Notes: generated by a model from the letters alone, not told the origin. 64,000 nucleotides of DNA from an uncultured delta proteobacterium (GCA_963716725.1 CAVQUB010000006.1:183027-247026); one strand, 5' to 3'. Counted from the first letter of the stretch, positions 15,697 to 62,262 are shown. Program-made: numbers and translations.

Positions 15697-15770
15697 CGGG
15701 GCGTAGCGCAGTTTGGTAGCGCGCACGGTTCGGGTCCGTGAGGTCGGCAGTTCGAATCTGCCCGCCCCGA
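15697..15770 (+). tRNA. tRNA-Pro(CGG), copy 1
   Basis: Cloverleaf with CGGGGCG/CGCCCCG acceptor stem, anticodon loop TTCGGGT, T-loop TTCGAAT; CCA not encoded. Confidence 0.95.
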
Positions 15771-15805
15771 CAAAACCTGGGTTAAACGTCGAAGGGGAGG
15801 GAACC

Positions 15806-15988
15806 ATGGCGGAGCTGAAGAGCACCGAGCGCGGTCTCCTCATCGACATCAAGGAACTGGATCAGTTGCCTAGTTTGCGCAGCTCTCTGAGCGTCCCGCC
15901 GGCGAACATTCAGGCAGTGACGCATCCTCCCTCCGACGCGAAAGGCGGAGGCAACGTCAAGCGGCTCCTCGCCGCCATCCGGCGCTGA
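15806..15988 (+). CDS. 60-aa hypothetical protein, possibly an internally deleted remnant
   Basis: Strong GGAGG RBS before ATG 15806. Confidence 0.45.
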   Translation: MAELKSTERGLLIDIKELDQLPSLRSSLSVPPANIQAVTHPPSDAKGGGNVKRLLAAIRR

Positions 15989-15993
15989 GTGCG

Positions 15994-17244
15994 TCAGCGC
16001 CGAGTCAACCCCGGACGGAACGAACGCTTGGAGCTGCGACGACGATATCGTCGCCACGCGAGCCACGCGCCGACTGCGGGTAGCAGCGCCGCGGCGAGGA
16101 TCACGACCCGCGCGAGAGGCAGGCGCGCCTGAGGGAGCGAGGCGCACGCCAGCTCGAAGCTCAGAAACCAGACCAAGCCGGCGATGAGCGCAGGCGCGAG
16201 GAGGAGCAAGGCCAGCTGTATCACGGTCCCTGGAACCCTCAGGAAGGTCTCGATTCCGAAGCGAAGCAGCCCTTCCCTCGAGAACGCCGTGAGCACGTCC
16301 ACCACGGCCCTCGGTCCCGATTGCCCGCGCGGAAATGCGAGATGAACTTCATCCCAGCGGTCCGGTGAGAGCTTCGCCTTGAAGGCCCTGAGCCCGTGAA
16401 AATCGTAGAGTTCACTCGATGCGTCCCGGATGGCTCGGAGCCACCCGCTCACGTCGCCCGACAGCGGCGCGAGACCGAGCGTGGCATAGGCAGCGTTCTC
16501 CTCGGCGACTGCCCGGAGCGCATGGTCGATGACCAACTCGACCGTTCCGTTGGGTGCGGTCGGATCCCGCAAGAAATCCTCCAAGAGCCAGCCGTTGCGC
16601 GCGTACACCGGGACCATGCCGAGAAACGCGACGATGCGCCCGTCTTGCTCGGCGACGAAGTAGCGGTGCTCCGCCACGAAGTGAAACGGGTGCACAGCCA
16701 CGAGGAAGCCCATCGGCGCGAGAGTGAGCCTACTGCTCCAACGCTCGATGAGTCTCTCGATGTCACGCCGTCGACTCCCGGGCGCGTCGCTGGTCTCGAT
16801 GGCGTCCAGCCGTCGGACTTCTACTCCCTTGGCCCGGGCTCTCCTCAGCTGTTCGCGCAGACTCTTGGAGACAGGCCGCGAATCGGCCACTCGCCGCGGG
16901 TCCCAGACCGGCTGCTCCCCGATCAGCATCGACGCGAAGTCCACGCTTCGTAGAAAGCGGGGCTCGACGCCGAAGAAACACGCGCGTCGCCCGGCGTCGC
17001 GTGCCGCGCGTACGAATCGGCTCGCGCACATGGCCAAGCACTCCTCGGCGGCGATGGGCGCGCCGGCTGCGACCCAGGCCCCACCCGTGTCCACGTAGGC
17101 CACCGCGCCGCTCTGGTCGAACCAGTAGCAAAACCCTGGCTCTAGCACCTGAAACGAGGTCGCGTTCCAGCCGTGCGCGCGCAGCCGGTCGAGCACCTTG
17201 GCACGCTCTGGCTCGCGTTCCAGCGCAATCTCGGACTGGACCAC
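15994..17244 (-). CDS. DUF2156 / aminoacyl-phosphatidylglycerol synthase C-terminal (GNAT-like) domain protein with C-terminal TM helices
   Basis: WVAAGAPI, LREQLRRARAKGV, RDPTAPNGTVE, TLGLAPL, YDFHGLRAFKAKL. Confidence 0.85.
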   Translation of the reverse strand: MVQSEIALEREPERAKVLDRLRAHGWNATSFQVLEPGFCYWFDQSGAVAYVDTGGAWVAAGAPIAAEECLAMCASRFVRAARDAGRRACFFGVEPRFLRSVDFASMLIGEQPVWDPRRVADSRPVSKSLREQLRRARAKGVEVRRLDAIETSDAPGSRRRDIERLIERWSSRLTLAPMGFLVAVHPFHFVAEHRYFVAEQDGRIVAFLGMVPVYARNGWLLEDFLRDPTAPNGTVELVIDHALRAVAEENAAYATLGLAPLSGDVSGWLRAIRDASSELYDFHGLRAFKAKLSPDRWDEVHLAFPRGQSGPRAVVDVLTAFSREGLLRFGIETFLRVPGTVIQLALLLLAPALIAGLVWFLSFELACASLPQARLPLARVVILAAALLPAVGAWLAWRRYRRRSSKRSFRPGLTRR

Positions 17245-17459
17245 TGGGCAGAGCTATACCGCAAGCGGAGAGCTGTCCACCCCCCGCTCAGCGCCCGGGA
17301 ATATCGCTGAACTCGAAGGTCACCCGAACCTCCCGCCCGCCCGCGGTGCGCGTCTTCTCCGCTGTCGAGCGCGGAGTGCGAGTCTCGGGCACCCGCTCGG
17401 ACGTTCAACGTCATGCCTGCTTGACGCGCTCGCGCGCGCGAAGTTCGCTTCGCTCGCCC

Positions 17460-18299
17460 ATGGCCAGCAGGAAGAAGGAGGAGCCGATCCCGCTCACCGA
17501 AGCCTTGGTGTCCGAGGTCGAAGCTCGGGTTCGCGCGGCGCGCTTCGTTGCGAACAGGCAACTCGTGGGCCGCATGCTGTCGCGGCACGACGAGCTGCTG
17601 CTGATCGAAAAGCTCGTGACGCGCGGGCTCGAGCGGACGCCGAAGGGTCTGCGCGCGCCCCTCGCGGACCAAGTCGCAGCCGCGGTCGCGGGCACGAGCC
17701 CCATCCCGCTCTCCGCCCTCCCGAAGTGCGTGAGCGGCTCCACCGCAGCTGAGGTCAAACGCACGGCGCTTCAGCTCGTCGATGCGGGCAGCCTCGCGTT
17801 GGTCGCGGGCTCGCGCGTGGACGCAATCACGGTGAAGGGAGCGCACCTGCTCGATCCCGACGAGGTGGCCGCGATCCGGGATTTGAGCAAGCGCTTGACC
17901 AAACTCGTCGCGCGGCTGCGCTCGCGAAAGGGAACTCCATCGAAGACCCTGGCGCGATCCGAGGCGCAAACCCTGTTCGGGCCCGTGCTGGAGATGCTGG
18001 CCGCGCCCAACGCCGCCGCGGGGATTGCGACCGCGCGCGTCCTCGAAACCTTGGCCGAACTCGAACGGTCGCGCGGTCGCTCCGTGTTCGTCCCGGATCT
18101 GGTTCGTGCGCTGGGAACGACGCAGGCGCCTGCGCCCGCCCACCAGGCGCTGCTCGCGCTCGCCCGCGCGGGCCGGGTGGAGCTTCGCCCCGAGAGCGGC
18201 GTCGGAGCGCTGTCGCCGGCGGATCGCGCGCTGTGCCCGGCCGACGCCCAAGGCCTCGTGATTTCTTATGCCCGGGTGATTTCGGGAGAGACCGCATGA
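17460..18299 (+). CDS. Hypothetical basic protein with probable winged-helix domains
   Basis: C-terminal VFVPDLVRAL...HQALLALARAGRVELRP wHTH-like pattern; ATGA overlap with the next gene. Confidence 0.7.
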   Translation: MASRKKEEPIPLTEALVSEVEARVRAARFVANRQLVGRMLSRHDELLLIEKLVTRGLERTPKGLRAPLADQVAAAVAGTSPIPLSALPKCVSGSTAAEVKRTALQLVDAGSLALVAGSRVDAITVKGAHLLDPDEVAAIRDLSKRLTKLVARLRSRKGTPSKTLARSEAQTLFGPVLEMLAAPNAAAGIATARVLETLAELERSRGRSVFVPDLVRALGTTQAPAPAHQALLALARAGRVELRPESGVGALSPADRALCPADAQGLVISYARVISGETA

Positions 18300-20311
18300 G
18301 GGGCCCCTTCGACTTTGAACACGCCGATCCCTGGGGCAGCGACGTCGTCGATGTCGCGTCGCTCAACGCCCACGTGAGCGACGCTATCCTCTCACGGATC
18401 GAGGCCGTGCGCCGCGCAGCTCCGCTCGGTCCGGCGGAGCTGCGGTCGAGCACACTCTTGGCGTTGGGTCCGGCGGGGTCCGGCAAGACCCACCTCTTCG
18501 TGCGGGTGCGCCGCCGGTTGGGACCGCGTGCGGCCTTCGTGCTCGTTCGCCCCGAGATCGGCATCGAAGCGACGCCCCGGCACGTCCTCACCCAGATCGT
18601 CGACTCGCTGCAACACGCTGCCTCGGGCACCACGGACCGACAGTTGGATGTGATCGCAGCGTCCATGCTCGCGGCGGTGTCGGGAGAGCGGATCGGACCA
18701 CACGTGTTGCTGGAGCAGCTCCGCCAACGGGACGAACGGCTGCGCGAAGATCTGATTGAGCGGGTCACCGCTCACCTCGAGGGCTTGTACTCCGAGGTTT
18801 GGCCCGACTACCTGGAGCGCCTCCTCCGCGCACCGTTCTTGCCGGCACCCGACCGCAGGGCCGCCAACGCCTGGCTCGCCGGGCGCGAGTTGAACGACGT
18901 GCAGCTCAGCCGCCTCGGCGGTGGAGCGAGCCTCACCGACTCGGACGTCCTGCCGGCGCTACGAACACTGGCCATCGTCGCCGCGCACGGCGCTCCCATC
19001 GTGCTCGTGTTCGACCAACTCGAGAACCTGGTCACCGCGGATCGGCAGTCTTCCCGGATCTCGGCGCATGGCAACCTGGTGAGTGAGCTGCACGACACCG
19101 TCCGCGGCCTGGTCGTGGTCCAGCTCGCCCTCGACGCCGAGTGGGATCGCAACATCCGCCCAAAGCTGGCGGCTTCCCATCGCTCGCGCGTCGAAGCCAA
19201 GCTCCTCGAGCTCTCGCTCCCGACGCCGGATCAGCGCGAAGAGCTGGTGCGCGTGTGGCTCGCTCGCCTCCCGTCGGTGGATCCGCAAGAACCGTTCCCC
19301 TGGCCGTTCACCAGGGCGCAGCTCGAGGCCTGGCGCGCTGCCACCGTGATGACACCACGCATGCTGATGATCGCGTGCCGCGAGGGCTTCGAGCCGGCGC
19401 TTCGTCCGATCAACACGGCGATCTCGGCAGCAGCGGCCCCGGCCTCCGCCGGCGTCAATGTCGGTGATCGCCTGGCTGATCTCTGGGCGCTGCACCTCGA
19501 GCGCGCACGCAACGAGCTCCAGTCCGTCGCCGCCGAGGGCCGCGGCACCGATGCGGAGCGCCTGGCGAGCGCGCTGGTCGTCGCGGCGGATCTCGCCGAA
19601 CTCGACCCGTCGACCACCACCGACCGGATCACGCGCACGGTCCGGCTGGGCAAGTCGGACCGCGAAATTCGCCTGGTACAGCACGCCCATCCTCGCTCTG
19701 TCGCCGCGGCGCTCCAGCACACTCTGGCGCTCCAGCACCCCACTCGCGCGGTCGTCCTTCGTGAACACGACCTGGCGTTCCCACCGACGTGGATCAAGGT
19801 CCTCGAGCATTCGCACGAGCTGACCACGCACGGTGTCCCGCTGATCTGGCTCGCCTTCGATGATGCGGCGCGACTCGTCGCGCTCCACGACTTTCTCGCG
19901 GCGGGACGCTCCCAAGATCTCGCTGGTCCTGACGGGCGCCCGCTCGACTTCGCGACGGTAGAAGGTTGGGTGAAAGGCAGCGTCGATTGGCAGAGCTGGC
20001 CCGTGGTGCGATCGGTCGTGCTCGGGATTGCCGACGACGACGTGGATCTGGATCGCGCGCGTGCGCCCGAAGCTGCCGCAGCTCCGCTGCGGGTGCCGGA
20101 CGCAGACTCCGGGTCCGGTGCGCGTCCGGGCCCCTCCCTGGCCGTGCTTCGTCGCCTGCGCGTCGCGAGTGTCGCGCGGATACTGCGCGAAGTGCGCCGC
20201 GTCGACGCGCGTGCCACCGCCACGAGCGTGGCCCATGAGCTGAGGCAGGCAGGTCCGGCAGTGCGCTGGTACGGTCGACGCTTGTGCGCCCTCACGGAGC
20301 GTGAGCCGTGA
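18296..20311 (+). CDS. P-loop (AAA+/STAND-like) ATPase
   Basis: Walker A GPAGSGKT, Walker B VLVFDQLE, TPRMLM sensor-like segment; GTGA overlap with the next gene. Confidence 0.85.
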   Translation: MRGPFDFEHADPWGSDVVDVASLNAHVSDAILSRIEAVRRAAPLGPAELRSSTLLALGPAGSGKTHLFVRVRRRLGPRAAFVLVRPEIGIEATPRHVLTQIVDSLQHAASGTTDRQLDVIAASMLAAVSGERIGPHVLLEQLRQRDERLREDLIERVTAHLEGLYSEVWPDYLERLLRAPFLPAPDRRAANAWLAGRELNDVQLSRLGGGASLTDSDVLPALRTLAIVAAHGAPIVLVFDQLENLVTADRQSSRISAHGNLVSELHDTVRGLVVVQLALDAEWDRNIRPKLAASHRSRVEAKLLELSLPTPDQREELVRVWLARLPSVDPQEPFPWPFTRAQLEAWRAATVMTPRMLMIACREGFEPALRPINTAISAAAAPASAGVNVGDRLADLWALHLERARNELQSVAAEGRGTDAERLASALVVAADLAELDPSTTTDRITRTVRLGKSDREIRLVQHAHPRSVAAALQHTLALQHPTRAVVLREHDLAFPPTWIKVLEHSHELTTHGVPLIWLAFDDAARLVALHDFLAAGRSQDLAGPDGRPLDFATVEGWVKGSVDWQSWPVVRSVVLGIADDDVDLDRARAPEAAAAPLRVPDADSGSGARPGPSLAVLRRLRVASVARILREVRRVDARATATSVAHELRQAGPAVRWYGRRLCALTEREP

Positions 20312-22293
20312 CCGCGCTGACGGTCACCGAGGTCCGCAACGCGCTGCGGTGCCCGCGGGTCTTCGCCCTGGGGCGGCGCTTCTCGAAGCGGGTGGTCTTT
20401 CCGGTCGGCTCCTCCGCGCTCGGCTCGGCCTTCCACCGCATCGCCGATCGCTTCGCCACCAGCACGTCACACCTGCCGAAGCGCTTCGGAGCCCTGCTCA
20501 CCTCCGCGCCGGTGGATGAGATCAGCGACGCGCTCTGCGGGGTGTTGCTCCGTCATCTCGTCGACGAGCTCGACCGGACTCCCGCCTACGCGTCGATGCC
20601 CGCCGAGGTGGACGATCTCGCGGAGGCCCTTCGCTCGTACGCGGGCTACCTCGCGCAACGGATCGCGCGCCGGCCGGGCGACCTGGCCGAGGTGCTTCGG
20701 CGGTTCTTGCACGACGCGGAGGTCTCGGTGCGCTGCGAGCTGTCGACGTCGGCGGGGCCGGTGGAGCTCTCGGGTCGGATCGACGCGATCCATGCGCCCG
20801 ACGAGCACTCGTACGAGGTCGTGGAATACAAGCTCACCGACGAGTCGACGGAGGAGCTCGACCGGGCTCAGGTCGCGCTCTACCGGCACATGCTCCAGCA
20901 GGACAAAGCGGCAGTGCCGATCATCCTGCGCTTCGGACCGGGGCTCGTGACCACGCGACTCGAGCCCCAGGCGGCGGACGCCTGGGTCGAACGCGAGCTA
21001 CTGCCCCTGCTCGGAGCCATGGTGACCTGGGTGGCGAGCCCGGAGCGCGCGCCGGCGACGAAGCGCACCGACCTGTGTCCTGCCTGCCCGCTCCGCGCCG
21101 AGTGCGTCGCCCTCTATCGCGACGCCGTTCCACCTCGCGACGATCCGCCCGCGAACGCCTGTCGTCCCCGACCCAGCCCGCAAGGCGAGGTCGCGTTGCC
21201 GGATCGGGACCAGCGAGGCTCTCCACCCAGCAGGCGCCCGGCGGCAGATCCGTCAGCGCTCGCGGAGGCCACTCGCCTCGTCGATCTGGTCGTCCGCCTC
21301 TACGCTGATCAAGGTGTCGCGGCCGCCGTGCGCAAGACCCCGCGCGTGGGCTCGCGCCTCATCCGCATCGAGCTGACCGCTAGCCGCGGGAGCATCAGGG
21401 ATCTCGACCGTGGAAGCGCCGACGTGCTCCACCATCTGGAAGCCGATCACGCCGTCCGGGCGAGCTACGGTCCCGAAGGAGCGCGACGGGTGATCGACGC
21501 GCAGCGCTCGGCGCCGAGCACGGTGCGCCTGGCGCCGCTACTCGAGCGGTGCCGGGAGTGGCTGCGGGCTCGTCCGGGCCGCTTCATTTTGGGTGAAGAC
21601 GTCGATGGCGAGCCGCTGCGCGCCGATTTGGGCGAGCCCACCGCGTGTCACCTGCTGATCGGCGGCACGACGGGGAGCGGGAAGTCCGTCTTGCTCAAGT
21701 CGATAGCCGCTGGCCTCGCCGAATACCAACCCCCAGCGGCGATCCAACTCACCCTGATCGATCCGAAGCGCGTGACGTTCACCGGCGTCGAGGCCGCGCT
21801 CGGCGGCCACCTGGCCCGTCCCGTGTGCTTCGACGCGAACGAGACGGTCGCGATACTCCACGACCTCGTCACCGAGATGGAGGACCGTTACGAACGCTTC
21901 GCTGCGCTGCGCGTCGAGACCATCGATGACCACAATGCGGCATCCGCCCCGTGCGACGTCCTTCCCCGACACGTGCTGATCATCGACGAGTTCCAGGATC
22001 TGCTCGCTACCAAGGAGACCAAGGAGGACTTCCTGGGCTCCGTGCAGCGTCTCGGCGCGAAGGCGCGCGCGGCCGGCATCCACCTAGTACTCGCGACCCA
22101 GCACCCCGATCGAAAGACCGTGCCCGCCGCCATCAAGGTCAACCTGACAGGCAAGGTCGCGCTCAAGGTGCACCAGGCCACGGATTCGCTCGTGGTGTTG
22201 GGCGCGCGCGGGGCAGAGACGCTGCTGGGCAACGGCGATCTGCTCGCGGATCTGGGCCGAGGGATCGTGCGTGCGCAGGGCCCACTGCCCTGA
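20308..22293 (+). CDS. PD-(D/E)XK (Cas4/AddB-like, Fe-S) nuclease fused to an FtsK/SpoIIIE ATPase
   Basis: LRCPR...GSAFH...GRIDAI...VVEYK...QVALY...CPACPLRAEC; HLLIGGTTGSGKS, LIDPK, IIDEFQDL, ARAAGIHLVLATQHP, AETLLGNGDLL. Confidence 0.9.
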   Translation: MTALTVTEVRNALRCPRVFALGRRFSKRVVFPVGSSALGSAFHRIADRFATSTSHLPKRFGALLTSAPVDEISDALCGVLLRHLVDELDRTPAYASMPAEVDDLAEALRSYAGYLAQRIARRPGDLAEVLRRFLHDAEVSVRCELSTSAGPVELSGRIDAIHAPDEHSYEVVEYKLTDESTEELDRAQVALYRHMLQQDKAAVPIILRFGPGLVTTRLEPQAADAWVERELLPLLGAMVTWVASPERAPATKRTDLCPACPLRAECVALYRDAVPPRDDPPANACRPRPSPQGEVALPDRDQRGSPPSRRPAADPSALAEATRLVDLVVRLYADQGVAAAVRKTPRVGSRLIRIELTASRGSIRDLDRGSADVLHHLEADHAVRASYGPEGARRVIDAQRSAPSTVRLAPLLERCREWLRARPGRFILGEDVDGEPLRADLGEPTACHLLIGGTTGSGKSVLLKSIAAGLAEYQPPAAIQLTLIDPKRVTFTGVEAALGGHLARPVCFDANETVAILHDLVTEMEDRYERFAALRVETIDDHNAASAPCDVLPRHVLIIDEFQDLLATKETKEDFLGSVQRLGAKARAAGIHLVLATQHPDRKTVPAAIKVNLTGKVALKVHQATDSLVVLGARGAETLLGNGDLLADLGRGIVRAQGPLP

Positions 22294-22364
22294 GCAAGTC
22301 GCGCGGGGCTCGGAGGCGGCGTGCGTCGGGCACCGGACGCGGCGTGCTATCTTCTCCCGGAGCC

Positions 22365-22943
22365 ATGGTCCTCGGCGCGCCCCACCACCGGCACACGTTT
22401 CGCGACTACCTCCATGTCGAGGAGATGAGTGCGGTCAAGCACGAGTATTTGGCGGGAGAGATCTTCGCCATGGCCGGGGGCACACCGGAGCATGCCGCTC
22501 TCAGCGCCGCGTTCCTGACGCTCCTCGGTCCGCAACTGCTCGGCAGCAAGTGCCGTTCCTACTCGGCCGACCTTCGCCTCCGCGTTCCCGCCACCGGGCT
22601 CGCGACCTACCCCGATGCCGCCATCGTCTGCGGCGATCTCGAGCTCGATCCCGAATCTTCAACCCACGTCACCAACCCCAAGGTTGTCGTCGAAGTGCTC
22701 AGCCCGAGCACGGAGGAGTACGACCGCGGCGAGAAGCGTGAGCACTACCAGCGCCTCGCTTCGCTCGCACAGTACGTGCTGGTCGCACAAACGCGGGTGA
22801 GAGTCGAGGTTTTCTCCCTCGCCGACGACGGATCATGGACGCATACCGTCCATTTTGCGGGGGAGCTCGTGGAGCTTCGGTCAGTGGGGTGTCGCTTCGC
22901 TGTCGACGATCTCTACGCCGCTGCCGGTGTGCGCCTCGACTGA
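22365..22943 (+). CDS. Uma2-family endonuclease
   Basis: KHEYLAGEIFAMAGG, YPDAAIVC, VVEVLSPSTEEYDRGEK. Confidence 0.92.
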   Translation: MVLGAPHHRHTFRDYLHVEEMSAVKHEYLAGEIFAMAGGTPEHAALSAAFLTLLGPQLLGSKCRSYSADLRLRVPATGLATYPDAAIVCGDLELDPESSTHVTNPKVVVEVLSPSTEEYDRGEKREHYQRLASLAQYVLVAQTRVRVEVFSLADDGSWTHTVHFAGELVELRSVGCRFAVDDLYAAAGVRLD

Positions 22944-23013
22944 ACTCCGGTCACGTGACGGGCTACGACCACTTTCGTCGCATCGCGCGGCTACGCTCGG
23001 CCTCGAGTCCCCC

Positions 23014-23331
23014 GTGCCCGACGCTTTCCTCCGACTGCTGCTGCTGCTCAGCGAAATACCGGTGGCACCCCAGCGCATCGATACCTGCACGCTCGCGCAG
23101 CGACTCGAAGCCCAGGGGGTCCGCGTGACGCGCCGCACCCTACAGCGCGATCTGGAGCGACTCTCGCGCCAGCTCCCGTTGACCCGCCACGACGACGCCA
23201 AGCCCTACGCTTGGGCCTGGCTCGAGTCCGACCTGCGGCCGGGCCGCGGCAAGCAGACGGAGACCCTGCGGGAGGTGGCGGCCCGCGCGGCCTCACACAT
23301 CAGGCGGTCGAGCGGCTGTTCGCCCGACTGA
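23014..23331 (+). CDS. Stand-alone HTH protein paralogous to the N-terminus of the adjacent WYL protein
   Basis: LEAQGVRVTRRTLQRDLERLS...KPYAWAW versus LEEEGITVTARSVQRDLERLS...KPYQWSW. Confidence 0.7.
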   Translation: MPDAFLRLLLLLSEIPVAPQRIDTCTLAQRLEAQGVRVTRRTLQRDLERLSRQLPLTRHDDAKPYAWAWLESDLRPGRGKQTETLREVAARAASHIRRSSGCSPD

Positions 23332-23377
23332 TGCCCGTCCTGTCCCAACCACGCGGACATCGCCTAAGGTCGGTGGC

Positions 23378-24436
23378 GTGCCTCGTTCCGGATCCGACGT
23401 CGAGACGCTCCACCGCCTCTGGTCGTTGCTCCGCCACGTGCCGCGGTCACCGCGGCGGGCCGACACGGTGACGCTGCAGCGCCGGCTCGAAGAAGAAGGC
23501 ATCACCGTCACGGCGCGCAGTGTGCAGCGCGATCTCGAGCGGCTCTCGGCGCGATTCATCACCCTGCAGTGCGATCGACGGTCGAAGCCCTACCAGTGGT
23601 CGTGGGACGGCGACGCGCCGCTGGTCGAGATCCCCGGCATGGGCGTGCCGGCGGCGGTGACCTTCGAGCTGGTGCGCGCCCACCTGCACGACGCCCTGCC
23701 CCGATCGACGCTGGCGAGCCTGGAGCCGCACTTCGCCCGTGCGCGAGAGGTGCTCGCTCGGCACACGAGCACGCCCCTTGCGCGTTGGCTCGCGAAGGTG
23801 CGAGTCGTCCCCCGCGGCTACCCGCTCGCCCCGCCCAACGTGCCGCCTCACGTGCTCGACGTGGTCTACGGCGCGTTGCTCGAAGAGCGCCGCTTCCGAG
23901 CCTTGTACAAGAAACACGGGGCGAAGGAGGAAAAGGAGTACGTCGTCAGCCCGCTGGGCCTGGCCGCCCGCAACGGCATCCTGAGCCTGGTGTGCACGTT
24001 CTGGGACTACGACAACGTGAACCACATGCTGCTCCATCGCATGCAGCGGGCCGAGCTCCTCGACGAGCCGCTGCACCGACCCCGCGGCTTCGATCTCGAC
24101 GCGCACCTCGCGAAAGGCGGCGTCGGCTTCGCGCGCGGCGAGCCCATCCGCCTGCGCGCTCGCGCCCACTACGACGTCGCCGTCGTGCTGCGCGAGACGC
24201 CCATGGGCAAGGACCAATCCCTGTCGCCCGACGACGAGCAGCACGAGCTGCTCGAAGTGACGGTGCCCGACACCATGGAACTTCGCGGCTGGCTGCTCAG
24301 CTACGGCCCGATGATCGAGGTCCTCGAGCCTGCCGCGCTGCGCGAGGACTTGGTCCGGACCATCACGATGACGGCAGAGACCTATGCCAATCCCAGGGCC
24401 AAGCCGGCACGGACCGCCCGCAAGCCGCGCCCCTAG
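23378..24436 (+). CDS. wHTH-WYL-WCX transcriptional regulator
   Basis: N-terminal HTH, VSPLGL...SLVC...LLHRM, LRETPMGKDQ, ELRGWLLSYGPMIEVLEPAALR. Confidence 0.92.
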   Translation: MPRSGSDVETLHRLWSLLRHVPRSPRRADTVTLQRRLEEEGITVTARSVQRDLERLSARFITLQCDRRSKPYQWSWDGDAPLVEIPGMGVPAAVTFELVRAHLHDALPRSTLASLEPHFARAREVLARHTSTPLARWLAKVRVVPRGYPLAPPNVPPHVLDVVYGALLEERRFRALYKKHGAKEEKEYVVSPLGLAARNGILSLVCTFWDYDNVNHMLLHRMQRAELLDEPLHRPRGFDLDAHLAKGGVGFARGEPIRLRARAHYDVAVVLRETPMGKDQSLSPDDEQHELLEVTVPDTMELRGWLLSYGPMIEVLEPAALREDLVRTITMTAETYANPRAKPARTARKPRP

Positions 24437-24484
24437 CCGGAAGCCGTTTGTCCCCGGGATTTCGCGCAATTGTCACCGCGCTGC

Positions 24485-24513
24485 TTGACATAGTGCTCGC
24501 CATTGTCCATGTT
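24485..24513 (+). promoter_or_regulatory. Sigma70 promoter of tRNA-Pro copy 2
   Basis: TTGACA-N17-CATGTT. Confidence 0.6.
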
Positions 24514-24544
24514 CGCGCGCCCTTCCGGTTCTGGCCGGAGGTTT

Positions 24545-24618
24545 CGGGGCGTAGCGCAGTTTGGTAGCGCGCACGGTTCGGGTCCGTGAGGTCGGCAGTT
24601 CGAATCTGCCCGCCCCGA
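24545..24618 (+). tRNA. tRNA-Pro(CGG), copy 2
   Basis: Identical to 15697-15770. Confidence 0.95.
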
Positions 24619-24840
24619 CAAAACCCCGAGTTGAGCGTCGCGGGACACGGCAGCGAGTTCCGACGACGGTTAGCTCGTTACCACTCTGTTGCCAGTTGCT
24701 GCGCCGAGCCTGCCGACGGCGTCGTGCCACAATATTGCCACCCACGCCGCCTCGGAACTCGGGAGCTGTTTCCCGCGGTTCCGGCCCCCCCGCCCGGGCC
24801 CGCTCATGCTACGCTTCCCGATCGGCCTCCGGAGCCCCAC

Positions 24841-50449: not shown

Positions 50450-51598
50450 TCATCTGCGCCGCTTCCTTCCGCGCCCTGCGCTTGGTTGATCGACCGAGAG
50501 CTGCGCGTACAGCTCGTGCAGCTTGCGGCGCAGGAGCGCCTTGGACGGGAGCATGGTCTGGTACTCGGCGACCAACGTCGGAGAGGTGGTGCGGGCGAGG
50601 GCGTACTCGACGACCTCGTCGTCCTTCGTCGCGCACAAGAGAACGCCAATGGAAGGCCGCTCGTGCGCCTTCTTCACGTCGCGGTCGAGGACCTCGACGT
50701 AGAAGCTGAGCTGGCCGAGGTCGGCGGGCTTGAACTTGTCGACCTTCAGCTCGAAGGCGACGAGGCACTGCAGCGACCGGTGGAAGAAGACGAGGTCAAT
50801 CGCGAAGTCCTGTTTGCCCACCTGCACCGGGTACTCGGACCCGACGAAGCAAAAGTCGCGACCGAGCTCGGTGATGAACCGGCCGAGGTTGCGCAGGAGG
50901 GCGCCATGCAGGTCGGCCTCCGAGTGACCGTCGTGCAGCGAGAGGAACTCGAGGCTGTAGGCGTTCTTCAGCTCGTCGAGGGCGGTCGGATGGACTTGTG
51001 CCACCGCTGGCGGTGCTTTCTTTGCAGCGGCGTCGCTTCGCACGATTGCCGCCGACTGGATCTGACGTTCGAGTTCGCGCTTGGTCCACCTCCCGCTGAT
51101 GGCCGCGAGTATGTAGAACTCACGCTCCTCGGGGCGCCGCGTCTGGCTGAGGATGATGAGGTGCTGGGTCCAGGGCAATTGTGTCACCAGCGGTGACACT
51201 TTCTTTTGGCTTCGGTACGCCTCGAAGAACTGCCGCATCCGGAAGAGGTTCCGGCGCGTGTAGCCGCGTATGCCAGGGTAGCGGCGCGCGAGCGTGTCCG
51301 CCAGCTCATCGACGACACCGTCGCCCCACTCAGCTTTCTCAATCTTATGGCTGATGTGCTCGCCGAGCTGCCAGTAGAGGGTCACGAGCTCCGTGTTGAC
51401 GGCCTGGTAGGCACGGTTGCGTGCAGCCTCGATGAGCGCCACCACCTCGGAGAACCTGGAGTCGTCGGACGCGAGAGCGCTCGACGGTCTCTGCAGCCCG
51501 GAGACAATCGCGTTCCTTTTCGCGGGCGATCGTCTCACCGTTGGTGAGACTTTCTTCGGCCCCGCCTTCGCGGGCTGCCTGCGCGAAGGATTGGTCAC
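50450..51598 (-). CDS. YhcG / DUF1016 PD-(D/E)XK nuclease-domain protein
   Basis: VNTELVTLYWQLG, RNLFRMRQF, ELGRDFCFVG, IDLVFFHR...AFELK, GQLSFY. Confidence 0.92.
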   Translation of the reverse strand: MTNPSRRQPAKAGPKKVSPTVRRSPAKRNAIVSGLQRPSSALASDDSRFSEVVALIEAARNRAYQAVNTELVTLYWQLGEHISHKIEKAEWGDGVVDELADTLARRYPGIRGYTRRNLFRMRQFFEAYRSQKKVSPLVTQLPWTQHLIILSQTRRPEEREFYILAAISGRWTKRELERQIQSAAIVRSDAAAKKAPPAVAQVHPTALDELKNAYSLEFLSLHDGHSEADLHGALLRNLGRFITELGRDFCFVGSEYPVQVGKQDFAIDLVFFHRSLQCLVAFELKVDKFKPADLGQLSFYVEVLDRDVKKAHERPSIGVLLCATKDDEVVEYALARTTSPTLVAEYQTMLPSKALLRRKLHELYAQLSVDQPSAGRGRKRRR

Positions 51599-51599
51599 G

Positions 51600-51884
51600 A
51601 CGCCCCCTTCTTCGCCGAGGCGGGGCGCGTGCTCTCGGGGCGGCGGGCGGCGGGTCGAGGCGCGGCGGGTACGGCGTGCCGGCGCGCGCGGCCTCGGCCA
51701 GCGCGTCGTAGATCGGGTTGATCTGGATGAGCGGGTCCGGCCAGAAGCGCCCGTCGGCGCAGCTGGCCTCGACCTGGTCTCGGATGTCCTCGGCCTGGAT
51801 GGTCGTAAAGGATGTCGCGAACTTGCGGTACTCACCGACGACGGTGTCGCGGAGCGAGAAGACGTCCGTGTGCTTCGTGGTCAC
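51600..51884 (-). pseudogene. Chimeric remnant: DEAD/DEAH helicase N-terminus joined to a DNA methylase-like C-terminus
   Basis: (T)DVFSLRDTVVGEYRKFATSF...WPDPLIQINP / IYDALAEAARAGTPYPPRLDPPP; family assignment is from recalled termini. Confidence 0.6.
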
Positions 51885-52331
51885 TCGCGGTCGCTCCCCT
51901 TGCCCGAACAGGCGAAGAGTTTCGTCGAGCCGGGCGCGGGGCTCAACCCCAGGTTTCCCGGGACCTGGAACCTGCGGCGGCGCTGCCCTGCGATCACCGC
52001 TGTCGCAAGGCTGACCCGACCTCAGACACCCTTCCGCGCTCGGAGCGCCGCGCCTCGCCATCGCCGGAGGTACGGGGTCACTAGCAGCTCAGGGAGCTGC
52101 TGCGTGTCCTCCAGGAACCAGCCGGTGAGCCCGTCTGCGAGCATTCGGCGTCGAGAAGCCCGAACTCGTTCAGCGATGGCGCTATCCGGTGCGACCGACG
52201 TGAAGGCCCACCAGCGCTACCTGCTGAACACGGCCAAGATGCGCAGAGTTCCGTCCGCCGCGCTGCCGAGTTTGAGCATCGTTCATGCAGAAACTCCCGA
52301 GGGCGAAGATCGAAACCCGAATGATTCCGGG

Positions 52332-52405
52332 TGCCGAAGGTCGGACTTGAACCGACGACCCCACGCTTATGAAGCGCGTGCTCTAACCAGCTGAGCTACT
52401 TCGGC
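52332..52405 (-). tRNA. tRNA-Met(CAT), elongator type
   Basis: GCCGAAG/CTTCGGC acceptor stem, anticodon loop TTCATAA, T-loop TTCAAGT. Confidence 0.92.
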
Positions 52406-62215: not shown

Positions 62216-62262
62216 GGCGGGGCAGGGCTCCTTGTCACGCGAGAATCCCCCAAGGCTGGTTG

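Follow-up and report, generated by a model that had tools for sequence, protein, structure and literature searches.

The closest described counterpart of the locus analysed here is the "HerA/FtsK capture" class of counter-invader systems, which Rakesh, Aravind and Krishnan (NAR 2024, PMC10853773) defined in silico and presented as coupled to Orc/CDC6 ATPases. According to section 22 of their article, its members lie in mobile neighbourhoods with HerA/FtsK proteins of the DndH-captured clades, the cellular FtsK clade included. The article gives as partner a specific Orc/CDC6 ATPase with an inactive restriction endonuclease (REase) inserted before its C-terminal winged helix-turn-helix (wHTH) domain, in addition to an active REase and, in a subset, a rapidly evolving protein of 2-4 wHTH domains. 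In section 26 it is proposed that the ORC-like ATPase localises the apparatus and that the motor intercepts invader DNA and feeds it to the nuclease; the passages used here of a 2026 article from the same group (PMC12839542) restate the description. We describe three genes, designated A, B and C, in a stretch of 64,000 nucleotides (nt), hereafter the window, from an uncultured delta proteobacterium (GCA_963716725.1, CAVQUB010000006.1:183027-247026). We consider it fairly probable that they form a stand-alone, mobile HerA/FtsK capture cassette, most likely directed against phages or plasmids. An earlier note on the same DNA had read the region as a sensor-ATPase-translocating nuclease defence system that it could not match to a named system; the predicted parts and the conserved, mobile trio hold, the wider unit with Uma2 and WYL genes does not, and a described class can now be named. 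The three genes are:

17460-18299, plus strand: gene A, 279-amino-acid (aa) basic protein with three winged-helix (wHTH) domains
18296-20311, plus strand: gene B, 671-aa ORC/Cdc6/TnsC-like AAA+ ATPase
20308-22293, plus strand: gene C, 661-aa fusion of a Cas4/RecB-family PD-(D/E)xK nuclease with an FtsK motor

The trio fits the already predicted Orc/CDC6-coupled HerA/FtsK capture class in its main features. As described in PMC10853773, the class shares with our locus an ORC-like ATPase, an active-type REase, an FtsK motor and a fast-evolving multi-wHTH protein, and it is likewise mobile and patchily distributed. The motor of the FtsK/DndH clades is matched by C, which hits FtsK_SpoIIIE, SspH and the structure 2ius and has invariant Walker A and B motifs. 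The active REase-fold nuclease expected of the class is also found in C, where activity is predicted from the PDDEXK_1 match and the invariant residues D159, E173 and K175, and the rapidly evolving multi-wHTH protein corresponds to A (48/48 loci, see below). In contrast, the main text of PMC10853773 names two REase families, one of them in common with AbiJ. It does not use the terms Cas4, RecB, cyanobacteria, deltaproteobacteria or myxo, it refers to 4Fe-4S for DndC only, and its description of the class includes no WYL regulator.

A second likeness is with DndFGH/SspFGH, and for the DndFGH complex nickase and translocase activities are reported in PMC11662687. The logic is similar in that a recognition subunit of three wHTH domains goes together with an ATPase and a nuclease bearing an FtsK-like translocase, and the motor of C matches the C-terminal 275 of the 1766 SspH positions (1477-1751, 4.2e-58). 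However, C is a third of the size of SspH/DndH (models of 1561-1766 positions) and matches in the motor only, the Dnd, Dpt and Ssp models (PADLOC, NCBIfam) have no match in A or B, and dnd/ssp modification genes are lacking in the interval between the two tRNA-Pro genes that flank the locus. BREX differs in that B has no PF10923 match and neither PglZ nor PglX is encoded in the interval. Compared with CRISPR-associated Cas4, C reaches only 31.8 bits with TIGR00372 against a cut-off of 65, is fused to FtsK, and has no cas genes beside it in the annotation of the window. Compared with cellular FtsK, it scores 120 bits with NF007615 against a cut-off of 1566. PADLOC-DB v2, a check named in the earlier note, assigned no system to the trio. 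Family scans of the seven proteins of the interval found no methylase, PglZ, Dnd/Ssp or Cas genes with the cassette, as the earlier note had stated.

Predicted architecture of the three proteins

The co-orientation of the three genes and their coupling by 4-nt overlaps, pointed out in the earlier note, are present in the sequence, with ATGA at 18296-18299 between A and B and GTGA at 20308-20311 between B and C. Gene A starts with the ATG at 17460, and the N-termini of 20 homologues align to that methionine. The earlier description of its product as basic and wHTH-like is borne out by an isoelectric point of 10.2 and by a structure model (mean predicted local distance difference test, pLDDT, 88) with three tandem winged helices. 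In the same distant loci identity amounts to 29-39% for A, 35-46% for B and 45-51% for C; A is therefore the fastest-evolving gene of the trio. Protein A is presumed to be the DNA-recognition subunit. Among 21 homologues of A there were no matches to Dnd, Dpt or Ssp models in PADLOC, and no wHTH family of Pfam was matched consistently. The matches listed in fold searches with the A model were generic wHTH proteins. FokI, SspB and DndG, whose triple-wHTH module is given in PMC10853773 as related to the wHTH protein of the class, were not among them, from which nothing can be inferred, because the lists were filled by these generic matches. Sequence-profile searches of the PDB with A and B returned chance-level or bare P-loop matches only.

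The model of B (pLDDT 89) has three parts, an AAA+ region (1-370), an alpha/beta domain (389-575) and a putative C-terminal wHTH (613-666), the last of which is modelled as three helices and a two-strand wing with pLDDT ~90. Walker A (G58-x2-G-x-GKT65) is invariant. The earlier note had called both Walker motifs intact, which holds for Walker A; Walker B reads hhhhD240-Q241, with DQ instead of the usual DE, followed by an invariant E243, and the DQ and E243 are also kept in the cyanobacterial homologue. The DQ Walker B suggests that B is a slowly hydrolysing ATP switch and not a motor. The domain 389-575 is modelled with confidence in a helix-strand-strand-strand-helix-strand order, which is that of the restriction endonuclease fold, and the homologue alignment contains no conserved D..(D/E)xK or acidic-lysine triad in it; we propose that it may be an inactive, REase-like domain. 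Fold searches with the whole B model listed no REase for this domain, but since the lists were filled by AAA+ matches, this absence is not informative, and an Atlas search with B 385-580 returned unnamed clusters only (best score 0.93), which is equally uninformative. At E <= 1e-30 the family of B has 279 representatives of clusters formed at 50% identity. PF10923 (BrxC_BrxD) matches 6/36 homologues of B, at best with 4e-08, and the PADLOC BrxD model matches 2/36.

Protein C consists of a nuclease (1-270), a Pro/Arg-rich linker and an FtsK-type motor (~400-660). The nuclease-FtsK fusion named in the earlier note is confirmed by Pfam matches to PDDEXK_1 (1.1e-18, residues 4-266) and FtsK_SpoIIIE (8.6e-30, 412-600), and the Fe-S type that the note gave it is predicted from four invariant cysteines, the N-terminal C15 and C257-x2-C260-x5-C266. 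The other invariant residues are D159, E173-Y-K175, Q188..Y192, G456SGKS460 and D560E561; catalytic, cysteine and Walker residues are all invariant in 27 sequences from two phyla, including the cyanobacterial one. The combination of D..ExK, QxxxY and an N-terminal cysteine with CxxCx5C is shared with Cas4/AddB nucleases, and we take it to be the pattern of their Fe-S type. Besides the C-terminus of SspH, the PADLOC models matched by C are mad8 (1.4e-21) and Cas4 (1.5e-08). In the PDB profile search the motor is closest to cellular FtsK (2ius, 3.3e-60). Unlike cellular FtsK, C ends with the motor; no membrane anchor was detected, and the Pfam scan showed no gamma-domain family. Elsewhere in the genome, contig C9 carries a further FtsK-like frame of 872 aa.

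Conservation and mobility of the trio

The related loci examined number 91, namely 12 genome or plasmid loci and 79 metagenome loci, the latter kept from a metagenome scan in which 386 stretches encode a relative of C. The order A-B-C is found in all 11 genome loci with a full-length C. Where the sequence covers the beginning of C and 300 nt or more before it, B is present in 66/67 loci, and with at least 2100 nt upstream in 51/52. Both A and B precede C on the same strand in all 48 loci with at least 3000 nt upstream (48/48), so that the co-occurrence and gene order on which the earlier note wished its reading to be judged are found; since at least five pairs of loci in the counts are near-duplicates, the 48 cannot be taken as independent events. 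Matches at the Oceanobacillus/Virgibacillus loci L006, L007 and L010-L012 and at the Bacteroidales locus L009 were dropped from later counts; in L006, the one inspected of the Oceanobacillus/Virgibacillus loci, the match lies within an 842-aa open reading frame (ORF) that was taken as an ordinary FtsK/SpoIIIE gene, and L009 was handled likewise.

A homologous trio is encoded on the conjugative plasmid pPSE7367.01 of Pseudanabaena PCC 7367, where it is annotated as a hypothetical protein of 266 aa, a "P-loop NTPase" of 680 aa and an "FtsK" of 688 aa. The cyanobacterial C' is 30% identical to C over the full length (2e-69), and B' matches the profile of B with 98.6% probability in hhalign. The match of A' to the profile of A is not significant (probability 16%), which is in line with A being the fastest-evolving gene. 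On this plasmid (locus L041, 298-4435) the trio is closely preceded by genes for a 1060-aa SNF2/ZorD/DpdE-like helicase (1e-129) and a SWIM zinc-finger partner, and closely followed by a phycobiliprotein lyase gene.

Two metagenomic proteins join parts of the trio in one chain. In P0381 (1436 aa), a B-like region (24-634) occurs together with a P-loop domain and with a nuclease of the C type (762-1036). P0293 (951 aa) contains B (6-662) and the motor half of C without the nuclease, which may be explained by fusion, frameshift or faulty gene calling. Complex prediction, a further check named in the earlier note, gave a score of 0.59 for full-length C with B 385-671 (runs 0.59, 0.59 and 0.60) against 0.00 for the best of three controls; the runs agree in at least 42% of contacts, and the pLDDT of the partner is at least 76. 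The pass mark used is reached by 58/80 solved complexes and by 2/110 mismatched pairs, and scores up to 0.60 include only 7 of the 80 solved complexes and both passing mismatches. The co-fold thus lends weak support to a predicted contact between C and B.

The window, with a G+C fraction of ~0.68, is part of contig C6 of a 7.9 Mb genome that is 84% complete, and its relatives in public records are metagenome-assembled genomes (MAGs) of Polyangiaceae/Myxococcota. A full-length C is encoded in 7/61 genomes searched, this one counted, and in two of six other genomes of the same genus (G002 and G003). The B profile matches 7/301 genomes of a phylum sample, a figure to be read as a minimum, since a stricter filter applied. 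In G002 and G003 the cassette occupies other chromosomal sites than here. Its nucleotide identity to these copies is 74-75% versus 80-86% for flanking core genes, and the homology extends from ~45-55 nt ahead of A to the stop codon of C. We conclude that A-B-C is a tight, self-contained, conserved and horizontally moving unit.

Due to this mobility, and to the transposition ATPases TnsC and MuB being among the closest folds of B, an alternative has to be weighed, in which the cassette serves the own DNA handling of a mobile element, that is transposition target selection, segregation, transfer or packaging, with B as a TnsC/MuB-like factor and C as a pump-nuclease. We regard this as quite unlikely. 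No transposase, integrase or relaxase is conserved alongside the trio, the flanks vary between loci, and the repeat scan found no repeats that bracket A-B-C or lie terminally around it, the limits of homology being those given above. A 16-nt repeat (17445-17460 and 22756-22771) is within chance range. The whole cassette was not seen in viral contigs; the best 80 matches all start at residue 324 or later of C and cover the FtsK half only, so that none has the nuclease half. The plasmid search gave 925 records for C, in no case with a match over 80% of its length; B has no match (0) and the Pseudanabaena B' matches itself only, which leaves the single cyanobacterial record.

Possible function and competing explanations

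Genomic context was surveyed in 51 ORFs at the 12 genome or plasmid loci (49 of 86 flanking ORFs and two from L041; the 37 omitted were mostly short or Pfam-named ordinary enzymes) and in 103 ORFs at 17 metagenome loci. The latter were the first 103 of 202 ORFs after removal of the near-duplicates L057, L064, L072, L073 and L109 and of loci with less than 3 kb of flank. Known or candidate defence genes were found at some loci. In a Myxococcales MAG (L001, 4160-9390), the cassette is immediately followed, on the other strand, by full-length ZacB-ZacC (PADLOC models of Azaca, 2.5e-166 and E = 0). AbiEi and PDC-S70 adjoin it in L002, and a gene for a 1689-aa SMC-like protein in L004. SNF2/ZorD-like helicases are encoded beside it in L008 and L041, and a type IV restriction enzyme (6.5e-226) together with PD-Lambda-1 in L068; PDC-M28 lies near the cassette in L061, and L056 has an SNF2 helicase. 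Of the known defence genes near which the earlier note proposed to look for enrichment, Azaca, AbiE and type IV restriction are seen at some loci; most neighbours are ordinary.

In the mechanism that we propose, domain content comes from the data and every step is inferred. The fast-evolving triple winged-helix protein A would recognise DNA, either a target or a mark of self. B would assemble on the DNA recognised by A via its own predicted C-terminal winged helix and act as a slow ATP switch, and with its putatively inactive REase-like middle domain it would recruit or license C. As a ring of the FtsK type, C would pump double-stranded DNA and cut it with its Cas4-like Fe-S nuclease. The HTH-WYL-WCX regulator described below, together with an HTH-only paralogue, probably controls expression in this genus. 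As no modification gene is present, discrimination between self and non-self would have to come from recognition by A and B, or from DNA ends or DNA in transit. A more specific version of the scheme, which we consider improbable, is a modification-free reader, in which A, loaded by B, gives C sequence reading in trans and cutting is licensed by the presence or absence of a motif read by A. In that case C would be an FtsK motor that has lost the gamma domain, the reader of chromosome polarity motifs, the dead REase-like domain of B would pair with the live nuclease of C, and the reading would be programmable and Chi/KOPS-like, with the rapid evolution of A tracking specificity.

Several observations weigh against a defence cassette of the capture class. 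Most loci have ordinary neighbours, and the defence neighbours are suggestive only, since their survey is descriptive and without a background control. Neither a modification partner nor any other obvious self-protection was found. In congeners the tRNA-Pro interval that holds the cassette here is filled with ordinary genes. One locus, L102, has C without B; there a full-length C homologue (1-2118) is preceded by ORFs of 470 and 181 aa without a match to the B profile or Pfam, which could reflect a variant whose partner was replaced or else a chimeric assembly. Strand order is the sole basis on which the middle domain of B is predicted to be an inactive REase, and the resemblance of B to TnsC and MuB would suit a transposition factor as well. 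No experimental work on the Orc/CDC6-FtsK capture class turned up in the literature searched.

A further point comes from cyanobacteria, where A and B may have relatives, by description, in RcaD and RcaG of Calothrix (Tolypothrix) PCC 7601. According to PMC2799420, RcaD (285 aa) binds a phycocyanin promoter, and the gene downstream codes for RcaG, a putative ATPase proposed to assist in binding; the same source reports from Noubir et al. (2002) that the C-terminal part of RcaD is the most conserved and that the putative ATPase gene comes next. Gene order and protein sizes, as described there, resemble those of A-B and of the Pseudanabaena pair, whereas RcaD and RcaG are reported as regulators of phycobiliprotein operons and not as defence genes. 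A and B could be a regulator with a helper ATPase of the RcaD/RcaG type. Alternatively, the trio could be a host machine for DNA repair or end processing, similar to AddAB or NurA-HerA. Cas4/AddB-type Fe-S nucleases act at DNA ends in repair. A motor-nuclease repair pair is described for NurA-HerA (PMC9960219). We consider this pair of explanations unlikely. The weak profile match between A and the cyanobacterial A' (the hhalign probability of 16% given above) argues against the regulator, and an intact, invariant nuclease and motor exceed the needs of one; a housekeeping role is disfavoured by the patchy presence (2/6 congeners, 7/301 genomes of the phylum sample) at differing sites.

If the HerA/FtsK capture reading is true, the cassette would give the Orc/CDC6-FtsK capture class, so far a prediction of comparative genomics, its first tractable example. 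It would represent a modification-free immune machine made of a replication-initiator-like ATP switch, a chromosome-segregation motor and a Cas4-type nuclease. The size of the family, with the 386 metagenome stretches and 279 B clusters given above, suffices for studies of specificity. The invariant catalytic residues allow clean mutants, and the WYL link offers a handle on induction in the genus. An identity of the cyanobacterial A/B pair with RcaD and RcaG is possible and, if true, would justify a second look at the regulatory assignment of 2002.

Neighbouring genes and the tRNA-Pro interval

The remaining features of the interval are:

15697-15771, plus strand: tRNA-Pro(cgg) found by ARAGORN, left edge of the variable interval
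15994-17244, minus strand: MprF-C-terminal-like gene (LPG_synthase_C 1.1e-29)
22365-22943, plus strand: Uma2-family putative endonuclease gene (Pfam Uma2 5.2e-32)
22855-23331, plus strand: ORF of an HTH-only gene that probably starts with the GTG at 23014 and is paralogous to the N-terminal part of the WYL regulator
23378-24436, plus strand: HTH-WYL-WCX regulator gene (WYL 1.2e-10, WCX 7e-15)
24545-24619, plus strand: second, identical copy of tRNA-Pro(cgg), right edge of the variable interval

The earlier note had placed Uma2 and two WYL-type genes in the system. One of the two is indeed a WYL gene and the other is HTH-only. The regulator of 352 aa has a WYL domain at 159-226 and a WCX domain at 255-329, and the PADLOC WYL model spans residues 13-320, which agrees with an HTH-WYL-WCX protein. 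The HTH-only ORF matches no Pfam family and is conserved from the GTG at 23014; a PADLOC WYL model matches it with the HTH end of the model only (0.0039). In G002 a homologue of the HTH-only gene precedes A (53% identity), and G003 has two homologues (59-64%). An orthologue of the WYL gene directly follows C in G002 (61% identity) and L042, with a weak further match in L098. The order in G002 is HTH-A-B-C-WYL without Uma2, and in G003 A-B-C stands alone, on another contig than the HTH and WYL genes of that genome. Besides the WYL orthologue (74%), the syntenic locus of G003 (L040, 3082-7971) contains an RNase_H_2/PolB-exonuclease-like gene (2e-34) and two paralogues of the HTH-only type.

The link of the WYL gene to the operon thus stands for G002 and L042 and fails for G003. 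Control by WYL is plausible but lineage-specific, because the linkage is seen in close kin only and is split in G003. We propose that the HTH-WYL-WCX gene is probably a lineage-specific transcriptional regulator of the cassette and that its HTH-only paralogue is possibly a lineage-specific co-regulator. The regulator resembles the BrxR/CapW class of WYL regulators of defence operons in being a 352-aa protein with HTH-WYL-WCX beside A-B-C in three close relatives. In contrast to that class, the WYL gene is unlinked to the cassette outside this clade and stands apart from it in G003.

The Uma2 gene also matches the PADLOC candidate PDC-S03 (1.1e-19). Beside the cassette, no Uma2 match was found at E <= 1e-5 by phmmer in any of the 91 related loci (0/91), and the only trace elsewhere is a weak tblastn match ~6.7 kb downstream in L004. 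Uma2 is a neighbour and not a conserved part of the cassette, contrary to its earlier inclusion in the system. These data also bear on a six-gene system, in which A-B-C, Uma2 and both HTH/WYL genes would act together with Uma2 as a second effector. All six genes are co-oriented within 7 kb, PDC-S03 is a single-gene candidate, and WYL and HTH genes flank A-B-C in G002. Nevertheless we consider such a system highly improbable in view of the 0/91 loci with Uma2, its absence from G002, the isolated A-B-C of G003 and the adjacency of WYL in G002 and L042 only (weak in L098).

The interval between the tRNA-Pro(cgg) genes contains seven protein genes, all on the plus strand except the MprF-like gene. 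Four congeners share synteny with this genome on both sides, on the left as far as the first tRNA-Pro and on the right beginning with the second, and three of these four also possess two tRNA-Pro copies, spaced 1.3-6.3 kb. Both tRNA-Pro genes are ancestral in the genus. The cargo between them in congeners consists of genes such as fasciclin, YkuD-like, PurT, AIG2 and deacetylase; the interval is therefore a variable spot between ancestral tRNA genes. The earlier description as a tRNA-bounded island is right in that two tRNA-Pro genes flank the locus, but the family scan gave no integrase match among the seven proteins (0). Neither an integrase-borne island nor the defence hotspot that the earlier note saw in it is demonstrated, given the ordinary genes in congeners and the lack of an integrase match. 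The tRNA-Pro copies form a repeat of 78 nt, and otherwise only short two-copy families were found. A scan of 15700-24700 gave 0 promoter-like and 3 terminator-like sites, without excess over shuffled sequence.

The MprF/LysX C-terminal-like gene scores far under the NCBIfam cut-offs and has 0 tblastn matches in the syntenic intervals of the four congeners. Elsewhere in the window, at 50450-51835 on the minus strand, a gene for a YhcG/DUF1016 PD-(D/E)xK nuclease (YhcG_C 6.3e-52, DUF1016_N 1e-42) adjoins a tRNA-Met gene at 52330-52405. A further tRNA-Met(cat) gene lies at 62262, and the ~10 kb between both tRNA-Met(cat) genes are occupied by ordinary genes (TonB, TatD, permease, PrkA and Ser/Thr kinase).

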